DNA of 64,000 bases from Bacillales bacterium UBA743 (GTDB taxonomy: Bacteria; Bacillota_I; Bacilli_A; RFN20; CAG-826), in contig DBKT01000011.1 of the NCBI GenBank assembly GCA_002297365.1, positions 210,650 to 274,649 of the forward strand. Direction: 5' to 3'. Shown here in pieces: positions 10,949 to 62,280 of this stretch (its first letter is position 1; every line of letters begins with the position of its first letter). The notes beneath the pieces were generated by a model. It ran no database searches, had not been told where the DNA came from, and was given only the letters and a program-made list of their open reading frames with translations. Both the position numbers and the translations under genes were made by a program.

Positions 10949-13900
10949 ATGAAGAGAAAGCGAATCATTTTAATGGTGATTTCAGGCGCAGCTGCAATTG
11001 GCATCGTCGCTGGTTTGAATGTGGGCAATAGCCTCTACAAACAATTTGAAGGGACCATCGTCGGCGTACTTTGTCCGCCGATAAAGGACGAGAAAGCTGC
11101 CGAAGCATCCACTTCCGCTGGAAACGAACTTGCGGAAAAGCTCGTCGCGGAAGGTTCGGTCTTACTCAAAAACAATGGAACTCTTCCTTTAAGCGAAAAT
11201 AACGTCACCGGCGTGAATCTCTTGGGCTTTGGCTCATATAATTGGCAATACACCGGCTCCGGAAGCGGAATCTCAGCCCCGCAACAAGGCGGTTGGGAGA
11301 CAAACACCGATCTAAGGGACGCTTTTATTGATTATGGAATAGATATCAATGAAAAACTTTATCGATATTACTCTTCTTATTCCAGCACTAGGCCGGAACT
11401 TGGAACGTTAGGCACGAATCGCGATACCAATCCTTATTTTTCTTATTTAGTAGAGCCGGACCTTGATGCAGACGAGAGTTATAAAGCTTTATTAACGCAA
11501 GCCCCCTCCTTTTCTAACACGGCGATTGTCTCCATCGGGAGAAGCGCGGGCGAAAGCGAAGACCTCCCTAAGAGCCAATACAAAACGAAACCAGGCGGCA
11601 TAGATGAGACTCGTCACACCCTTCAGCTGACCACAGAAGAAGAAAAGCTTCTTCGTTTTGCGGGAAGCGCTTTTGAAAACGTCATTGTACTGATTAATTC
11701 CACCAATACCTTCCAAACGGATTTCTTAGATACAATTCCAGGCATTGATGCGGCCCTATGCGTGGGTGTTACGGGCAACCACGGTGCTTTAGCGATCCCG
11801 AAATTGCTTTTTGGCGAAGTCAATCCTTCCGGTCATTTGGCGGATACGGTCCCTTATGATTTTTTGAAAAACGTGAATACGGAATATACTGGTTTCGAAG
11901 GCGTTTCTTTCTACAAGAATTCCGCGGACGTTACTACCCCTGAAAGCCAAAAAAGGTATGGGTACACAAACGCTGGATACAGCGACAGACCTGGTCTAGC
12001 CTATGTCGATTATATTGAGGACATTTATGTCGGATATCGTTGGTATGAGACCGCTGGCGCAGAAGGGGTGTTCGATAAAGAAACACGTCAGACGCTTGAC
12101 ATGAACGATAACCCCATTACCAAAACAAAATATGACGCCGTTGTTCAATATCCTTTTGGATATGGCCTCTCTTACACGAATTTTGATTGGAAGATCAATT
12201 CCGCGAAAGTGCTCGAAAAAGAAAAAAATGAAGATGGCACCATTTCCGAAAAAGAGGTCAATGATGATTCTATCGAAGCAAATCGCGTGTACCGTTTTGA
12301 AGTAGAAGTCACAAACGTTGGTTCGGTGGCTGGGAAAGACGTTGTTGAGCTTTATAACGCCCCTTCTTACACCGAAGGCGGTATTGAAAAAAGCGTTGTG
12401 AATCTACTGGATTTTGCAAAAACGGATATCATTCAGCCAGGCGAAAGCGAAATTGTCATCGTTGAAGCGGAAACCAGAGATTTCGCTTCATTTGATGCTT
12501 ACGACAAAAACAATAACGGCAAAAGCACATACGAGATTGATGAAGGCAACTATGCTCTCCAGCTTATGAGTGATTCCCATCACATAAAAGAAGTTGTCAA
12601 TGATGGCGGAGAGAAAGTCCCTGGTGTTAAAAATTACCAAGCGAAATCCACCCTCATTCTGGATAAAGACCCTTATACCGAACAAGAAATCTCTAATATC
12701 TTTACCGGCACAAACGCAAAAGATGGCGTCAGCATTGATGGATTAGGCGAAGCCGGTGGCAATCAAAATATCGATTATATTTCTCGTAAGGACTTCAATG
12801 GCGATTACGCTTATCCACGTGCAAAATCTTCTACCGGAGACATTACTACTGGCAGAGACATGGCTTCTAATATAGCCGACAAAATGTATTTCCAAGGATA
12901 TGACAGAAAAGATAGAAGCAAAGCAATCGCTTTTGACAAAGCTACAGTCGATGCATTCGGAAACGAAGTGGACCAAACCCCTGTAACCTATAAATCAGGC
13001 GATTTAAAAGTCACGAACTCGGTGCAAGAGTCAAAACTCGAGAATGTGACCGAACTTGGCTTTGCTCTTGGAGAAAATTATGACGATCCGCGCTGGGAAG
13101 ATGTTTTGAATCAAGTGTCAAGCGAGGAAGCAAAAAATACCCTTAGCAACGCCTTCTCAAAGCAAAGCGCAATCGCTTCCATTGGCTTACCGGAAGTTAA
13201 TACTTTAGATGGCCCTTCCCAAATTGGCGGATTTACCTCGCCAAATAAAGGCGTCGGCTTTCCGAATTCCACTCTTGTCGCTCAAACTTGGGATAAGATT
13301 CTCGCCTACGAAGAAGGCTTATCGATTGGAAATGACATGGAAGCCCTTGGTCTGTACGGAATCTGCGGAACGGGTGCGGATATTCACCGCTCTCCATTTT
13401 GCGGAAGAAACTTCGAATATTATTCAGAAGATCCTCTTTTATCTGGCATCATGGCCGGAAATTATGTGAAAGGCATCCGCCAAAACGGGAAAATCGCTTA
13501 TTTGAAGCATTTCGCTTTGGCGGAAACCGAGACTTGCCGCGATAACCTTTACACCTGGGTAAGTGAGCAAGCGCTCAGAGAAATCTACTTGGAGCCATTT
13601 AGAATTGCGGTTCAAGAATATGGCGCGAACGGATTGATGACCTCCTATAACCGCGTCGGAGCCCTTTGGGCTGGCGGAAGCGTCTCATTGATGACTGGCG
13701 TTTTACGAAACGAATGGGGATTCAAAGGAGCGGTCATTACCGATTATTCCGACCTGAATCGCTATATGGATTTAGACGAAACGTTAAGAGCCGGCGGCGA
13801 TTTAGGAATGGCCGTAGGAACAGTAAGCGACTACTCGACCCCTCGCGCACAACGCGTGCTTAGAAATGCGGTAAAACACGTTGTATACGCTTATCTCAAT

Positions 13901-14137
13901 GCGATGTATTCGCGCCGTGAATATAACAAGAACCCTTGGAAGGGGAAAACCATCACCTCCTCCAATTCAAGGCCATCTTTCAATTGGGTATCACCATTAG
14001 TCCTTGATGTGAATATCGCCCTTGGGTTCGTTGTCTTTGGCTTAGTCTTCTTCGGAGTGTTCGATTCCTTCGGATTATGTGCGTGGATTGACCAAAAAAT
14101 CGCATCCAAAAAGAAGAAAAAAGAGGAGGAGAAATAA
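10949..14137 (+). CDS. Glycoside hydrolase family 3 (beta-glucosidase/beta-xylosidase-like), domain-permuted, with N-terminal signal-anchor and C-terminal TM anchor plus poly-Lys tail
   Basis: The GH3 C-terminal-type domain and FnIII-like region occur first (LLKNNGTLPL...). The GH3 catalytic (beta/alpha)8 domain with the KHF and nucleophile motif (GFKGAVITDYSD) occurs last. Hydrophobic N-terminus (ILMVISGAAAIGIVAGL). C-terminal helix (IALGFVVFGLVFFGVF) followed by KKKKKEEEK. Confidence 0.8.
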   Translation: MKRKRIILMVISGAAAIGIVAGLNVGNSLYKQFEGTIVGVLCPPIKDEKAAEASTSAGNELAEKLVAEGSVLLKNNGTLPLSENNVTGVNLLGFGSYNWQYTGSGSGISAPQQGGWETNTDLRDAFIDYGIDINEKLYRYYSSYSSTRPELGTLGTNRDTNPYFSYLVEPDLDADESYKALLTQAPSFSNTAIVSIGRSAGESEDLPKSQYKTKPGGIDETRHTLQLTTEEEKLLRFAGSAFENVIVLINSTNTFQTDFLDTIPGIDAALCVGVTGNHGALAIPKLLFGEVNPSGHLADTVPYDFLKNVNTEYTGFEGVSFYKNSADVTTPESQKRYGYTNAGYSDRPGLAYVDYIEDIYVGYRWYETAGAEGVFDKETRQTLDMNDNPITKTKYDAVVQYPFGYGLSYTNFDWKINSAKVLEKEKNEDGTISEKEVNDDSIEANRVYRFEVEVTNVGSVAGKDVVELYNAPSYTEGGIEKSVVNLLDFAKTDIIQPGESEIVIVEAETRDFASFDAYDKNNNGKSTYEIDEGNYALQLMSDSHHIKEVVNDGGEKVPGVKNYQAKSTLILDKDPYTEQEISNIFTGTNAKDGVSIDGLGEAGGNQNIDYISRKDFNGDYAYPRAKSSTGDITTGRDMASNIADKMYFQGYDRKDRSKAIAFDKATVDAFGNEVDQTPVTYKSGDLKVTNSVQESKLENVTELGFALGENYDDPRWEDVLNQVSSEEAKNTLSNAFSKQSAIASIGLPEVNTLDGPSQIGGFTSPNKGVGFPNSTLVAQTWDKILAYEEGLSIGNDMEALGLYGICGTGADIHRSPFCGRNFEYYSEDPLLSGIMAGNYVKGIRQNGKIAYLKHFALAETETCRDNLYTWVSEQALREIYLEPFRIAVQEYGANGLMTSYNRVGALWAGGSVSLMTGVLRNEWGFKGAVITDYSDLNRYMDLDETLRAGGDLGMAVGTVSDYSTPRAQRVLRNAVKHVVYAYLNAMYSRREYNKNPWKGKTITSSNSRPSFNWVSPLVLDVNIALGFVVFGLVFFGVFDSFGLCAWIDQKIASKKKKKEEEK

Positions 14138-14138
14138 C

Positions 14139-17090
14139 ATGAAAACAAAACGTATTGCTTTGATTGTCTTAAGTTCGGCGGCTTTAATCACATGCGGAAC
14201 CGTCCCTTTAGTAGAGTATCTGAAATTCCTCAGCGACCAAGCTCTAGCCTCCCAAGACAGCATTCAAGAAGATGGAAGCTCTAGTAACGAGCAACAGCAA
14301 AAGAAACGTCTCACCGACATGAACATTTCCTTAAAAGAAGGCTTTTCCTATTACAAAAATAGAAAAGCAAGCCCAAAATTTGAGGATTTTGATGTCAATG
14401 GTGTTTATAACGACGGCAGCAATTCCCCAATGGAGAAAGAGAAAGTAAGTCTCTCCTATGGCGATGATTTCTTCTTAAATGGTGGAAAAATCGTCTTTTC
14501 CTCAGGCTCCGTCACGAAAGAAATCACGGTTGAGCTCACCGATCTAAAAAAGGTCTCGCTCACGATTAGTTCCCTTCCTTTCAAAACGGTTTATGAAAAA
14601 AATGAGACGTTCGATGAAGAAGCATTAAAGGTAGAGGTTCTCTACAATGACGGCAGCAAAGAGAGCGTTGCCAAGCAAGACGCTTCAAATCCTAACGGCT
14701 ATCAGATAATAACCTCAGAATTTTCTGAGCCTACCGACGCCCATGAAGTCAAGATTGTTTATGGGGAAGGGGATGAAAAGATCGAGACCGCCTTCTCAGT
14801 GAAGGTTGTTACGAGTTTGGCAAACGATGAGCTTAAATCCGTTTACGTCGAGCCTGTCACTTTATCGGAAGGGGATTCGTTAAGCTCCTTATCCTCTAAT
14901 TGTCGCGTTATCGGCGTCTATGAAAGCGGAAATAAGAAAGTCTTAAATGACGATGAATATTATTTCTCTTCCCTAAATGGAACTGCTGAGCTCGGGGAAA
15001 AATATGACATTTCCGTTATTTTAAATGATTCTGGTCTAAAAGCACCGGTTTCCATCACCACAAGAAAGAAGATTGAAGCGGAATCCGCAACTCTTCCTGA
15101 GAATACCTACTATCCGCATGTCGGGACGCACTTAGGAGTGACTTACGTCGGCGGCTTCAACCCGCTGAAAGGGAAAGAGGGCGAAAATTGGATGGCCTTT
15201 TCCGTATCTTCCGAAAATTATTCGGAAGGGAAGCTCACTCTTCGCCTTAGCAATGGCTTCGCCAGAAATATCCAAGGCGAAAATGCATGGACGCAATATC
15301 ACGCTGCATTGCCTTTGGATCTATCCGATGTCGCGACGATTACCTTAAATGGCAAAGAATTGGAAGGCGATTTCTGGCTCCCTGGATATGTCACAACCAA
15401 AGAGGAAGAAGTTGGCTATTACGATGAAATATTCGGTCATTACGTCAACCTCACGATTGACGATATAGCGCTTCATAGAGGTGATGACAACATCCTGAAA
15501 ATCCAATGGAAAACAAGCGAAAGCGGGAAACAAAACCTTTGGAATGAGACCCCTTCTTGCAACATCGATTATTTTGTTTATGAAGTCGAAAGCAAAGAGC
15601 TTAATGCAAGCGATGTCGTTTCGCTTGAATCTTCCTCCTTCCCAAGTAGAATTTCATCTTTGGATCTTGAGGAAAAGAATTTCATAGTTAATGCCAAAAT
15701 GAATGACGGCAGCCTTCGTGAGGTGTCTAGAGATGATATCCTCATTTCGGTGAGTAACGTCTTTGCCCCAACCGAATTCGGGGTTGGATATCATGACGTT
15801 ACCGTTTATTTGGCCAAGAATAAATCTATTTTCTTCGTTCAGAAAAATGTCCTTGTTTACGATGAAACTTCCGCGGATTACATGGATGCCAACGGCGGAG
15901 CAAAAGGGACAATCCAAGATTCTTATGGCGTTAAGCACAAGGTTTGGACCGATTTGAGCGATGGAAACACCCTCAATGTGTCTTTCGCGGTGCATCAAAA
16001 GCAATCCATTGATGTCTTCCTTGAATTGATTAATCTCTATAAGCAAAACGATATCAGCTTAGATGTTCCCCTCAATAAAGTAATGGACGTCACGCTTGAT
16101 GATAACGCTTTGGCTATAAACGACTCTGTCATTTTGAAAGGAAAAATGAGCAGCAGTCAAAAAGAACAAGGAAACATCTATCCTTCTAGCGTCAAACTGA
16201 TCACGCTCAATGATTTAGAGCGTGGGGAGCATTCCTTAAAGATCACGCTCAAGAGCGAGAACGAATACACGCCAAGTCTTGCTTTAGAGAAGGTTCGTTT
16301 CGAAAGTAGCAAATACGATGTGAAAGATGTGAAGTCTATCGCTTTCGAGAAAGAAAGCATCTCCGTTGAAGGCAATACGTATTGTTCCGAAGTTATTTTG
16401 CCTCGCGTTATCGCAACGCTAAACAACGAGGAAAAAGTTGTGCTCGATGATGCGGATTTAATCTTCTCTTATAGCGAGGATTCTATTATCTATGCTCCAT
16501 TAAGCGAAGAAAGAATAGAAGCTAAATTAGGTGAGCTTAAAGCAACGCTCACGATTCATGTCTCCGGTAAAATGGAGGCAGAAAATCGCACTGGACTTAG
16601 CTATAACGTGAACACGGAGAAGAATGAAGCTGGTGACGTTTATGTTTCTGGCTTTACCAATAAAAACACTTGGCGGTCTACTTTCGACTATAAATTCACC
16701 ATAAAAGAAGAAGGAGATTACAAGATTTCTGCAAATTTAGCGAATGGCTATATCGTTAAAAACAACGAAGGCAGCTATTATTCCAAAGAAATCGCCTTAA
16801 AAGAATTCGTTGATTTCAAAATAAACGGCGAAGCATTGACGTTGAGCGATTCTGCGAAATTTGAAAATTCAAGCAATAGCGATTTATGGGATTTATACAA
16901 GATATTTAGCCTTCTCACAATCTCTGATGGCACACACCTTAAAAAAGGCGAGAATTCAATCCACTTTGAATTTAAATCATTCCATAACGATTTGGATGAA
17001 GATTTCTATTGGGTTAATCAAAATGGCGTGGGCAAAGACCCCCAATCCCCAACCTTCAATCTTGATTACTTCCTTTTGGAGAAAATATAA
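14139..17090 (+). CDS. Large surface (lipo)protein with tandem Ig-like beta-sandwich repeats. The preferred start is the ATG at 14139; the ORF track's start at 14079 overlaps the previous gene.
   Basis: Strong SD AAGAGGAGGAG 8 nt upstream of the ATG at 14139. Signal peptide MKTKRIALIVLSSAALITCG with Cys. About 980 aa, Ser/Thr-rich, with repetitive beta-rich modules. Confidence 0.55.
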   Translation: MKTKRIALIVLSSAALITCGTVPLVEYLKFLSDQALASQDSIQEDGSSSNEQQQKKRLTDMNISLKEGFSYYKNRKASPKFEDFDVNGVYNDGSNSPMEKEKVSLSYGDDFFLNGGKIVFSSGSVTKEITVELTDLKKVSLTISSLPFKTVYEKNETFDEEALKVEVLYNDGSKESVAKQDASNPNGYQIITSEFSEPTDAHEVKIVYGEGDEKIETAFSVKVVTSLANDELKSVYVEPVTLSEGDSLSSLSSNCRVIGVYESGNKKVLNDDEYYFSSLNGTAELGEKYDISVILNDSGLKAPVSITTRKKIEAESATLPENTYYPHVGTHLGVTYVGGFNPLKGKEGENWMAFSVSSENYSEGKLTLRLSNGFARNIQGENAWTQYHAALPLDLSDVATITLNGKELEGDFWLPGYVTTKEEEVGYYDEIFGHYVNLTIDDIALHRGDDNILKIQWKTSESGKQNLWNETPSCNIDYFVYEVESKELNASDVVSLESSSFPSRISSLDLEEKNFIVNAKMNDGSLREVSRDDILISVSNVFAPTEFGVGYHDVTVYLAKNKSIFFVQKNVLVYDETSADYMDANGGAKGTIQDSYGVKHKVWTDLSDGNTLNVSFAVHQKQSIDVFLELINLYKQNDISLDVPLNKVMDVTLDDNALAINDSVILKGKMSSSQKEQGNIYPSSVKLITLNDLERGEHSLKITLKSENEYTPSLALEKVRFESSKYDVKDVKSIAFEKESISVEGNTYCSEVILPRVIATLNNEEKVVLDDADLIFSYSEDSIIYAPLSEERIEAKLGELKATLTIHVSGKMEAENRTGLSYNVNTEKNEAGDVYVSGFTNKNTWRSTFDYKFTIKEEGDYKISANLANGYIVKNNEGSYYSKEIALKEFVDFKINGEALTLSDSAKFENSSNSDLWDLYKIFSLLTISDGTHLKKGENSIHFEFKSFHNDLDEDFYWVNQNGVGKDPQSPTFNLDYFLLEKI

Positions 17091-59145: not shown

Positions 59146-59697
59146 ATGGTTTTCATGATATTCCAAAATCTTCAATAGAAGCGTAATGATGATAAATCCT
59201 AAACTCAATACCATCTTTACGATAGCAAGGGTCGAACCCAGAATACGAATCGTCATATTCAAAATTCATCCCGAGGAAAACGTTGTTTATCCTTTCCTTG
59301 CTAGAACACATGCTCAATCCGTAGACATCAACATCTGGGTCGTTGACATAAATAGAACTGACGACAAAGGATTCGTCTTGAGGGTAAAGACGATAATTGA
59401 CACGTTTTTTTCATAATCGACGGTCCCGTCTTGGCCGATATTGTCGGAATATGCCGAATCCATGTAACAAATAAAAACTTCGCGCGGATAATACAAATTT
59501 CTTTCGTTTAAATCCTTGTGCTCAATCACGTCGCCCACCCAATAATCCAGAGCCCAATCGCTTGGCCTTACCCTGGGGTCGACGTCAACGCTCTCGGGCT
59601 TGGAAGGGTTGGAGGAAACCGTAGGATCGTGGTCATCGCAAGAAGGCAAGGTCAAAGAAAAGATCGCCAACATGCCAACAATTATTCTCTTTCTCAT
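59146..59697 (-). pseudogene. Small lipoprotein gene disrupted by a -1 frameshift at an A7 tract (T7 on the plus strand, 59405-59411); candidate phase-variable gene
   Basis: Lipobox LTLPSC. The ORF stops 30 codons after the A7 tract. A protein-like reading frame continues for 60 more codons in the +1 frame to 59146, and A8 would give a continuous 183-aa product. Confidence 0.5.
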
Positions 59698-61174
59698 TTT
59701 TGCTCACCTGCTTTCTCACATAGGGTGTTCAAGGGATAAACAGCATAGTATCCTACAAATAAATTATAATTATGCACTCCCTTGTTGTCTCTATCACACG
59801 TCCTTGGATCCATAATTATCTTTTTGCTATAGTCCTGGTTCGTAACTGCCCCTGTACCTGTTTTGTGTGACCAAGAGCCATCGGAGTTTTGGCGGTACCA
59901 ATGGTAATCATACCCATGAGCGTCATCTGCAGAATCCTGATTATCAATCACAAAAGCGACCTTGTACATTCCTGCCGGGAAAACTTCCCAGCTATTGATT
60001 TCGTTAAAGCCTCAGCATCTCCCCGAATTACCGAAAGAATATTGTTGGTATTAAGCAAATCCTCTGCCTTAATGCCTATTCCGCAAGCTTCACCAGGTTG
60101 CATCGACTCAATCGTTCCTTTCGTCGGGTTTATCTGAGCGTTTAAGGCATAAGAATAGCAATTTAGACGATACTGATAATCGTCCCAGATTTCAGGTTGG
60201 TAATCTAATTCGGATCCCGACAAAGGCATCTTATATTCCGTTGTGTAAAACGACATTCTTCCGATGCAAATTCTGCCCCTGTTATCTTCAGAAGAATAGG
60301 TTCCATCGTAACGCGAATAGAATCTAACCCTATATGCCGGCTGGGAGAATTCAAGCTTATAAATCCTTTTCTCGTTTCTATTCCTCGGTAACCCTGTTTC
60401 TTCAGATAGCAAATCTAACACCGTGACCCATCTATCGCCTATGAATTGCTGTACGACCGCTTCGCCATTGCTGTTCGAAAGCAATTCATTGGACAATTCT
60501 CGCCAATGGGACAGCTCAACATTTATTCTATTCAAAGCAACGCTAAAACGATACTCAATAAAGGCTTCATTAACACCTTTTCTTATCGGAGACATAACTA
60601 TATCTTCATTATGAATGTATCCAACCCTATATCTTCTAGTCTCAAAAGCGAAACCGCGGACTGAATGGGACTGAAAATTTGTTTTCGTCGCATCGTCGGT
60701 TGGATACGCATCCTCGAATCCATACTCGTTCGGGGCGACATATGGTTTATTCGTGTTAAAACCAGGTTTCTCAAATTCAGCCATGCACCAATAATCGTCC
60801 CAATAATGACAAGAATCCGATCCCAAAGTTATCAAAACATAGTATTTTTTCCCGGGGGTTTTGAAAAGAATCTGGTCCCATTCGGATGAAGTCAAAGCGT
60901 ATTTCCATCCAGAAAACTTTGCTTTTTGAAAAATCTTATTTTTACTTGAATCAAGTATCGAAAAGTTGAGGTAAGGGTTTGTGTTTCCCACCCAACGCTC
61001 CCTATAAAGCGATTTCCAAACGAATGTGGGTTTGAGATCAATATGTTCTCCCAATTGCATTTCAATTTCACGAGGGAAGATGAATGCTGACGCATCACAG
61101 TCGTCTCCTCCATTTGAAGAATGGTATTTTGCCCTTAGGTTTTTTCTGCATAAAAATCTAAGCCAATTGCGCAA
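59694..61174 (-). pseudogene. Downstream portion of a multi-domain secreted papain-like peptidase gene, split by frameshifts (at about 61140, an A6 tract, and about 59950-59990)
   Basis: A6 to A7 at 61136-61141 (plus-strand T6) would fuse this frame to the upstream C39-like ORF. The C-terminal region carries a Cys motif (NCYSYAL) and, after the second frameshift, a His motif (HGYDYHWYRQ), consistent with a second papain-like domain. Confidence 0.4.
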
Positions 61175-62070
61175 ACGATGTCCGTGTACCCTAAATCCTT
61201 TAACGAGGCGTGAGTAAGAGCGGTATTATTCTCTTCATTTCTCCACCCAGGATGGACATTAATAGTCCACGTAATAGAATTATAATCGTAGGCCACTACC
61301 GAGTGCGTGTTGGAAGAGTTTGGTTGTTTTACAATCAAAATCATCGGCTTTCCACGCTTAAGGTTTTCAGCGATTTTGTTTTTAATCGAAGATCCGCCAG
61401 AGTTTTCATAGAAATTTATGATGGCTTCTTTTTCAGAATAGTTCCTATATTTATGCATATAGGCATCCAGCAAATCACAAATGTTCTTGCCGCTTAGCCC
61501 AAGGTCCCCTTTAAGAACGGCATAGCTTAAAATCCCAAGGTGTTCCTCGGCCAGGTCGAACAGCTTAAACTGAAAATAGTCTTCTTTCTTTTGAATCGCA
61601 ATATTCAAATACTTATCAAAATCATCATTCGCGAACAAGCCAGATGGTTCGAAGCGAATTCCCGGAGACTCCGTGTTTGTTGGAACTAAATCAAAATCAG
61701 CCGATTGTTGTCTTTCGTATGAATAAATGGAATCAACATCATACGAGTTAGGAATAACCGAATCATTCCAATAAGAGTCGTAAAAAGTCAAAAGCATCCC
61801 AATGGAAACATAGCCGCAAGACCCATAGACATTATTACCGAAATTTTCTCTAAGATTGTCAAAATAATAGGAAGCGTACCTGCTTTGGTTATAGATTTCG
61901 CTTTGACCATTCGAAACCAACTTATTGAACAAATCATCGGTGCGTCCATCACCCAAATAAGCATTGGCAACAACGTCGTTTTCATGCATTGTTTCTTTTT
62001 GAATAGATGCATTTGAAAAAAATGAGAGTAAGAACAAAAAACCGCCTAAAATGAACATCCCCTTTTTCAT
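61135..62070 (-). CDS. Secreted peptidase C39-like (papain-fold, BtrH/C39_2-type) domain protein. The preferred start is the ATG at 62070 (MKKGMFILGG...).
   Basis: Signal peptide after the internal Met. Motifs GSCGYVSIGMLLTFY (Cys nucleophile) and HSVVAYDY (His) typical of C39-like domains. Confidence 0.55.
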   Translation of the reverse strand: MKKGMFILGGFLFLLSFFSNASIQKETMHENDVVANAYLGDGRTDDLFNKLVSNGQSEIYNQSRYASYYFDNLRENFGNNVYGSCGYVSIGMLLTFYDSYWNDSVIPNSYDVDSIYSYERQQSADFDLVPTNTESPGIRFEPSGLFANDDFDKYLNIAIQKKEDYFQFKLFDLAEEHLGILSYAVLKGDLGLSGKNICDLLDAYMHKYRNYSEKEAIINFYENSGGSSIKNKIAENLKRGKPMILIVKQPNSSNTHSVVAYDYNSITWTINVHPGWRNEENNTALTHASLKDLGYTDIVCAIGLDFYAEKT

Positions 62071-62280
62071 AGTGGTTTTCCTTTCGTTTGATTGCAAAAC
62101 GATTTTAAATAGGAGCTCTTTAAAAATCAATTTTATTCAAATGAACGGAATTCTTTGCTTCATATTCTTCGAAATGAAACGTTCTTCCTTTCGGCTTTCG
62201 CATTAAAGACCATTGGTGTTTCTTAACCAATTCGTCCCCTATTTTGATGCACGTCCCCCTTATTTTAAGCAATATAAGAG

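Follow-up and report, generated by a model that had tools for sequence, protein, structure and literature searches.

The 64,000-nucleotide stretch of contig DBKT01000011.1 from Bacillales bacterium UBA743 analyzed here (referred to as the window; G+C content of 40.4%) carries on its minus strand a broken gene for a secreted cysteine peptidase and, directly behind it, a broken gene for a small lipoprotein. A sequence-only reading of the window had proposed that three open reading frames (ORFs) read as one protein of roughly 790 amino acids (aa) once two frameshifts are corrected. We found the three minus-strand ORFs as described, at 62070(62130)-61135, 61174-59948, and 59969-59694. Six-frame translation shows that the first ORF (fragment A) terminates with ...GLDFYAEKT*, and that one A added to the A-run at this site yields ...GLDFYAEK-NLRAKYHSSNGG..., which continues stop-free into the next frame. 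A second -1 shift links ...RGDAEAL with ...EINSWEVFPAGMYKVAF..., and the third frame starts at ...GFNEINSWEVFPAGMYKVAF..., just ahead of the stop of the second ORF (fragment B). The two frame changes run in one direction, and each would fit the lack of one base (or of 3n+1 bases).

The repaired, fused product is 792 aa long and gave 98 database protein matches. Most of these homologues are intact proteins of 770-810 aa that align over 95-99% of the query (E = 0); approximately 90 are collinear, intact relatives, and the closest homologue (P0001, 789 aa) is 88% identical to the repaired window protein. Since the homologues are mostly intact and full length, the collinearity of the three ORFs is far beyond chance, which confirms that they are pieces of one secreted cysteine-peptidase gene of approximately 790 aa. 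The comparison with intact orthologues thus bore out the proposed single protein, as the gene is single and in frame in relatives, including the sister-lineage loci. Gene order is also shared: the P0001 locus is syntenic (flavodoxin/ODP gene, peptidase gene, 179-aa gene, and MatE gene), and a contig from a GTDB genome (L005), whose DNA is 84-89% identical to the window, repeats this arrangement with its 777-aa gene intact. The relatives are labeled as uncultured Mollicutes, Bacilli, Erysipelotrichaceae, or Anaeroplasmataceae, with gut, faecal, or rumen in many titles. No second copy (paralogue) of the peptidase was found in the 64-kb window by tblastn with the fused protein. We also considered whether the ORFs are interrupted because a Mollicutes-like organism might use the table-4 genetic code (TGA = Trp); this was dropped, as the stop of fragment A is TAA and readthrough of the TGA of fragment B leads to no homology. 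As a separate observation, the L005 contig (CAVGNR010000017.1) is titled 'Escherichia coli isolate H07629-L1_cleanbin_000009'; because it carries a low-GC Bacilli locus of such identity to the window, the E. coli label looks wrong.

The AlphaFold2 (AF2) model of the intact homologue P0001, built with 47 homologues (mean predicted local distance difference test score, pLDDT, of 87.6), together with domain searches, gives the domain order as a signal peptide, a C39_2-like Cys/His peptidase domain, two beta-sandwiches resembling carbohydrate-binding modules (CBM-like), and a DUF7689 domain. Fragment A (61135..62070, minus strand; 311 aa) encodes a Sec signal peptide (MKKGMFILGGFLFLLSFFSNA|S) and the complete N-terminal C39_2-like domain before a premature TAA. 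Fragment B (60012..61139, minus strand; ORF 61174-59948) encodes the two CBM-like beta-sandwiches and the first half of DUF7689, including the Cys of NCYSYAL, and has no signal peptide of its own. Fragment C (59694..60005, minus strand; ORF 59969-59694) encodes the second half of DUF7689 with the His of DYHWYRQ and the DGSWSHK and DP..CDR motifs. Upstream of the peptidase start codon, a consensus scan alone places a promoter-like site, TTGATT-17-TAAAAT, at 62102..62130 (minus strand).

We next located the lesions by DNA alignment. The first is an A6 run at 61140..61145 (minus strand). It is one base short of the A7 run with which L001 and L005, two sister-lineage loci, read the site in frame; these two have GCACAAAAAAAT, where the window has GCA-GAAAAAACC. 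The premature TAA follows at 61135-61137. In the AF2 model the lesion comes behind the final strand of the peptidase domain, where this domain gives way to the first beta-sandwich. It had been predicted that the first break lies at an A-run and that A7 would fuse the frames, and both hold; the predicted coordinates (61136-61141) were approximately 4 nt off. Similarly, the predicted second break exists, although not at about 59950-59990 but at a junction 15-60 nt away, where alignments with L001, L005, and conspecific strains reveal a 13-bp deletion that leaves a single GGCTTT copy (60006..60011, minus strand). The undeleted site reads GGCTTTGGGATTTGGCTTT in the sister-lineage loci and GGCTTTGGGGTTCGGCTTT in conspecific strains. 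Since a lone GGCTTT remains in the window, lesion 2 is a deletion between GGCTTT direct repeats; it splits the DUF7689 domain, is irreversible, and is polymorphic among conspecific strains. A further site of variation is a T7 run within the signal-peptide coding region (62016..62022, minus strand), which is T8, and hence frameshifted, in one conspecific strain (L035).

The partner lipoprotein gene (59153..59697, minus strand) is likewise a pseudogene in the window, with a 127-aa ORF at 59697-59314 followed by an out-of-frame tail. As the sequence-only reading had noted, the peptidase stop overlaps the start of the frameshifted lipoprotein gene in an ATGA (59694..59697, minus strand), with a Shine-Dalgarno-like AGGTGA upstream. 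The same reading had the lipoprotein depend on homopolymer length, and this did not hold: the lesion is a G absent between 59404 and 59405, right after an A7 run at 59405-59411 that is itself unchanged. The window allele is GAAAAAAA-CGTG and the intact conspecific allele is GAAAAAAAGCGTG, with an A-run of 7 in both; the intact allele (181 aa) is present in L033 and L035. We considered whether the ATGA overlap arose in the pseudogene by loss of an earlier stop. This was ruled out, because the C-terminal extension of the peptidase (...NTLCEKAGEQK) is also present in the intact 796-aa sister alleles P0107 and P0116. Furthermore, many related loci have a gene for a small lipoprotein or secreted protein (approximately 120-240 aa) beginning from a few to approximately 40 nt after the peptidase gene, and one such locus (L008 6416-8129, from uncultured Erysipelotrichaceae RUG131) has the lipoprotein gene in three tandem copies behind the peptidase gene. 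To judge from these gene arrangements, tight coupling of the peptidase and lipoprotein genes is a feature of the family. The closer relatives of the lipoprotein share the pattern RPxDYxLDYW ... YLDSxY ... DPxIxIYGLS, and a Pfam scan of the lipoprotein family gave no match.

The lesions recur in other assemblies. The conspecific set comprises six assemblies, labeled window, L033, L034, L035, L036, and L037 in our lesion matrix, and the lesion-bearing contigs come from ENA ERZ27300230, JGI 3300029947, Logan SRR1747052, and ENA ERZ26859183, ERZ808280, and ERZ808240. An identical 311-aa truncated product is present on several contigs from independent assemblies. The window is 100% identical to contig k119_86462 of ERZ27300230 over a 7.9-kb overlap, and the JGI contig (sample 3300029947) is identical to it across the aligned 3.1 kb. 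SRR1747052, ERZ26859183, and ERZ808280 represent three further strains that are 99.65-99.74% identical to the window; the sixth contig that carries the locus is from ERZ808240. A6 at lesion 1 is shared by all six assemblies. The 13-bp deletion is present in four (window, L033, L036, and L037) and absent from L034 and L035, as it is from the sister loci L001 and L005. The lipoprotein G deletion also occurs in four of the six, a different set (window, L034, L036, and L037; not L033 or L035), while T8 in place of T7 is found in one of five strains, L035 alone. The 13-bp deletion and the lipoprotein G deletion thus occur in all four combinations among strains that are 5-11 single-nucleotide polymorphisms (SNPs) apart in 3.1 kb, which implies that strains have recombined or that one of the two sites has mutated more than once. 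A search of JGI metagenome contigs with a variable-gap pattern for an A7 (ON) variant of the species recovered one further contig, which has A6. Elsewhere the window is dense in coding sequence, its large ORFs are unbroken, and no other obviously broken genes were found in it. Because the lesions recur across separate assemblies and the rest of the window is unbroken, an assembly artefact is excluded for practical purposes, and the lesions are real mutations.

We asked how long the genes have been broken. We compared the repaired window gene with L001 and L005 by the ratio of nonsynonymous to synonymous substitution rates (dN/dS; Nei-Gojobori method). It is 0.14-0.17 for every one of the three fragments (dS of 0.27-0.72) and 0.19-0.30 for the lipoprotein gene; the corrected frames contain no internal stops. 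Since dN/dS is low throughout, most of the divergence built up under purifying selection, which points to recent inactivation. SNPs within the species have a nonsynonymous to synonymous ratio of 1:4 in fragment A, 4:3 in fragments B and C, and 3:1 in the lipoprotein gene. The difference between fragment A (1:4) and the downstream parts (B, C, and lipoprotein gene, 7:4) is not significant (Fisher p = 0.28), and the trend is a weak hint of relaxed constraint downstream of fragment A. Related lineages have lost the peptidase as well. In a sister-lineage strain (L038/L039; ERZ28638172 and ERR3451576), 1.72 kb are missing from the interior of the peptidase gene, and the deletion junction shows a 10-nt overlap (L038 4097-4106). 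What remains of the peptidase is a 208-aa stub, while the lipoprotein gene is intact. The sister-lineage allele P0105 carries a C-terminal frameshift, and L021 encodes a 401-aa version with the lipoprotein gene directly after it. The losses in L038/L039 and P0105 are independent of the lesions in the window. The peptidase has thus been lost repeatedly and is evidently dispensable.

Taken together, our data make it probable that the locus is a young pseudogene pair, recently inactivated and still decaying, rather than a phase-variable switch. We propose that an uncultured low-GC gut species, Bacilli- or Mollicutes-like, inherited a conserved two-gene module that encodes the secreted protein of approximately 790 aa and the small lipoprotein. 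The founding knock-out would have been the loss of one A from the A7 run at the end of the first domain, which is common to every conspecific assembly found and presumably arose by replication slippage. The 13-bp deletion between 6-bp direct repeats, the 1-bp deletion in the lipoprotein gene, and the T7-to-T8 insertion in the signal peptide would have followed, and these three still segregate among strains. The module is presumably no longer needed in this lineage. As for the intact protein, we would guess that it hydrolyzes host or dietary glycoproteins outside the cell, perhaps guided by its CBM-like domains.

The sequence-only reading had favored a contingency locus and had named ongoing decay as its alternative. 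In a contingency locus, slippage at the A6/A7 tract and at the nearby T7 and A7 tracts would reversibly switch both the peptidase and the lipoprotein. It is decay that the strain comparison supports, with its one shared lesion and later lesions that segregate. The locus resembles the simple sequence repeat contingency loci of Haemophilus, Neisseria, Campylobacter, and Mycoplasma in that its frameshifts affect surface or secreted proteins and lie in or near homopolymers. The run that holds lesion 1 is an in-frame A7 in the sister-lineage loci, the T7/T8 difference is a length polymorphism, and the lipoprotein lesion adjoins an A7 run, with both of its states present on both backgrounds of the 13-bp deletion. 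The locus is unlike such loci, however: the tract is short and does not vary among strains, the second lesion cannot revert, and there is no enrichment of tracts. No tract-length polymorphism occurs at A6 among the six conspecific assemblies, and T7/T8 of L035 is the only one we observed. Because slippage cannot revert the 13-bp deletion, A7 could not restore the protein of the window, and the two lipoprotein states differ by a G rather than by the length of the A-run. We counted 143 homopolymers of at least 6 nt in the 64-kb window (40% G+C), none of which exceeds 7 nt, and their density at the locus is 1.8 per kb compared to 2.2 per kb for the window. We therefore regard a reversible switch as very unlikely. 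We give still less credence to programmed recoding, in which a -1 ribosomal frameshift or transcriptional slippage at the A-run would yield the full-length protein from the A6 allele. While tRNA-Lys, moved back by one base on A_AAA_A, could still pair perfectly, and L034 and L035 would yield the full-length product given such a shift, GCA GAA AAA ACC TAA contains no tandem slippery heptamer (X XXY YYZ), the A-site codon ACC cannot re-pair, and the RNA downstream of the A-run folds no better than shuffled sequences (z = -0.82). A run of six A is too short for efficient transcriptional slippage. Nor is the shift conserved, because intact homologues are single ORFs and L001 and L005 are in frame. 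An equally improbable explanation is that the gene is intact in the organism and that the frameshifts are homopolymer errors of sequencing or assembly. Two of the three lesions do touch A-runs, and the sequence comes from a metagenome assembly with a MEGAHIT-style contig name (k119_86462), but the lesions recur in ENA (k119_ and NODE_), JGI, and Logan contigs from different samples, the 13-bp deletion is not a homopolymer error, and no other gene in the window is obviously broken.

The most serious competitor, which we still judge unlikely, is a domain fission, in which the 311-aa secreted C39_2-like peptidase remains in use and only the CBM-like and DUF7689 parts and the lipoprotein gene decay. 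All of the conserved residues described below (C85, H256, D262, and H273) and the signal peptide lie in fragment A, the AF2 model places the truncation right behind the domain's last strand, four of the five SNPs in fragment A are synonymous, and truncated variants directly before a lipoprotein gene occur elsewhere (401 aa in L021 and 208 aa in L038). On the other hand, the T8 frameshift in L035 strips the signal peptide from fragment A, the SNPs are too few to demonstrate constraint, and the domain is fused to the rest of the protein in approximately 90 relatives, which suggests that the CBM-like domains are needed for targeting. Some of our observations also count against a decaying pseudogene pair as such. 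In four of five strains fragment A has lost neither its signal peptide nor any of the catalytic domain, and its SNPs are few and mostly synonymous; it may therefore still be expressed as a working stand-alone peptidase. Low dN/dS by itself cannot separate a very recent loss from continued use, and consensus metagenome assemblies would hide a minority A7 sub-population in any sample. Finally, the four lesion combinations call for recombination or for recurrent mutation, and a lipoprotein site that mutates repeatedly would somewhat resemble a switch.

We then examined the N-terminal domain, an alpha/beta domain of approximately residues 35-312 in the AF2 model of P0001. C85, H256, and H273 do not vary among the 47 homologues, and conservation of D262 is at least 90%, so that by sequence conservation the domain has Cys, His, and Asp in the papain order, and C85, H256, and D262 all fall within fragment A. 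The earlier description of a secreted protein with an N-terminal C39-like Cys/His domain is thus supported by the signal peptide and by C85 and H256. PF13529 (Peptidase_C39_2) matches 21 of the 47 homologues, with a best E value of 1.6e-6; P0002 reaches 23.4 bits, just short of the cut-off of 24, and the fused window protein has no match to this or any other Pfam family at E <= 1. The NCBIfam model NF045837 ('Mplas_Cys_pep') aligns with residues 140-316 of the fused protein at 40.8 bits (E = 2.3e-10) against a cut-off of 45, indicating that the domain is related to this family and, by the NCBI criterion, is not a member of it. The domain resembles PF13529 and NF045837 proteins in having the Cys of GSCGYV, the His of HSVVAYDY, and an Asp behind a Sec signal peptide, but the scores of the window family do not exceed the curated cut-offs. 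C39 domains of the classical type process leader peptides in the cytoplasm and are fused to ABC exporters. Unlike these, the domain of the window family is secreted and fused to CBM-like domains. A passage in PMC8593674, citing Cizelj et al. 2011, describes Mycoplasma CysP as a surface cysteine protease of M. gallisepticum and M. synoviae that cleaves immunoglobulin G. The window protein is similar in being a predicted extracellular cysteine protease of a Mollicutes-related lineage. CysP may belong to the NF045837 family, which the N-terminal domain matches weakly.

The two beta-sandwiches (approximately residues 315-615) resemble CBM51, CBM32, and galactose-binding-like modules (Foldseek E values of 1e-6 to 1e-4). 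They dominate the full-length Foldseek search, which is consequently uninformative on the peptidase domains, and profile searches of PDB sequences returned nothing useful, whether the profile represented the whole protein or its N-terminal or C-terminal domain. The C-terminal part is exchanged in some relatives. In a group of paralogues of approximately 915 aa (P0054, P0057, P0084-P0089, P0093, and P0094), only approximately 72-87% of the query is aligned. P0054 carries a Peptidase_M10 (matrixin) domain at residues 789-912 in place of the C-terminal DUF7689, and P0088, P0089, and P0093 have a precomputed PF00413 match; the other paralogues of this size have no recorded Pfam match. Because M10 replaces DUF7689 there in P0054, the C-terminal position suggests a catalytic module.

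The C-terminal domain itself covers approximately residues 615-789 and reaches a pLDDT of 93.5 when modeled alone. PF24738 (DUF7689) matches the homologue P0060 at 31.6 bits over residues 633-746 (cut-off of 22.6) and 8 of the 47 family members, with no match to P0001 or to the fused window sequence. Conservation and modeled secondary structure place a nearly invariant Cys (NCYxYA) at the N terminus of a helix and the His of DYHWYRQ on a strand, followed by a conserved Asp; the conserved columns of our C-terminal alignment (A2) are C27, H117, D140, and D148. The sole divergent member of this alignment that lacks the Cys also lacks the His. These features are shared with papain-fold enzymes of clan CA (Josephin-type clippases, the C39 domain of PCAT1, and NlpC/P60), in which a Cys at a helix N terminus and a His on a beta-strand are likewise followed by an Asp. 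The C-terminal domain differs from clan CA enzymes in that it has no significant fold match: Foldseek against PDB gave a best match of E = 0.011, probability 0.30, and template modeling (TM) score 0.28 (9g7g), and all of the weak matches have a probability of at most 0.35 and a TM score of at most 0.37. The top weak matches are mostly papain-fold proteins, namely Josephin-type clippases, the C39 domain of PCAT1 (E = 0.13), ubiquitin-specific proteases, NTAQ1, and SpvD. A second, papain-like catalytic domain at the C terminus, as the sequence-only reading had put forward, is therefore plausible but unproven. The designation 'tandem' does not apply in the sense of a duplicated domain, since hhalign of the N-terminal (A3) and C-terminal (A2) alignments found no homology between them (probability of 0.2%, one aligned column).

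We questioned how widespread the C-terminal domain is. A search with our profile of it retrieved 4565 proteins, each representing a 50%-identity cluster, and 2644 of these match at E <= 1e-10. We sampled ten of the proteins, none of which has a Pfam DUF7689 match at E <= 0.001; their Pfam partner domains are Ricin-B lectins, Big_2, CBM96, and an S8 subtilase. In BFVD the C-terminal model strongly matches uncharacterized proteins of giant viruses, namely M1HB16 (E = 4e-13, TM score of 0.83), F2Y2U4, and the Hokovirus protein A0A1V0SF80. In the literature library searched, no paper contains the term DUF7689.

These data invite a broader idea, which we put forward tentatively and think more doubtful than not. 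The intact module might be a widespread and uncharacterized system of gut Bacilli that degrades surface or host molecules with two different thiol hydrolase domains, DUF7689 being a very divergent papain-like catalytic domain, with CBM-like domains for targeting and a cognate lipoprotein that could act as inhibitor, anchor, or chaperone; its repeated loss might then reflect selection imposed by the host, such as immune recognition. If so, a papain-like DUF7689 domain would be found in giant viruses as well and, in bacteria, fused to lectins, Ig-like domains, and other peptidases. For the window, the practical consequence is one of annotation, namely that the three ORFs be joined and that the peptidase and lipoprotein genes be flagged as pseudogenes, and this finding is itself of little weight. 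More broadly, the strains would offer a natural time series of gene decay, with one lesion common to every conspecific assembly, three later ones that segregate, and independent losses in sister strains. The work also brings to light a conserved and uncharacterized peptidase-lipoprotein module and an abundant, likewise uncharacterized domain, DUF7689, with thousands of representatives.

Elsewhere in the window, on the plus strand, a 1003-aa ORF with no Pfam match (14079-17090) overlaps the ORF of a GH3 glycosidase (10949-14137), in which the Pfam 'C-terminal' domain stands ahead of the 'N-terminal' domain.

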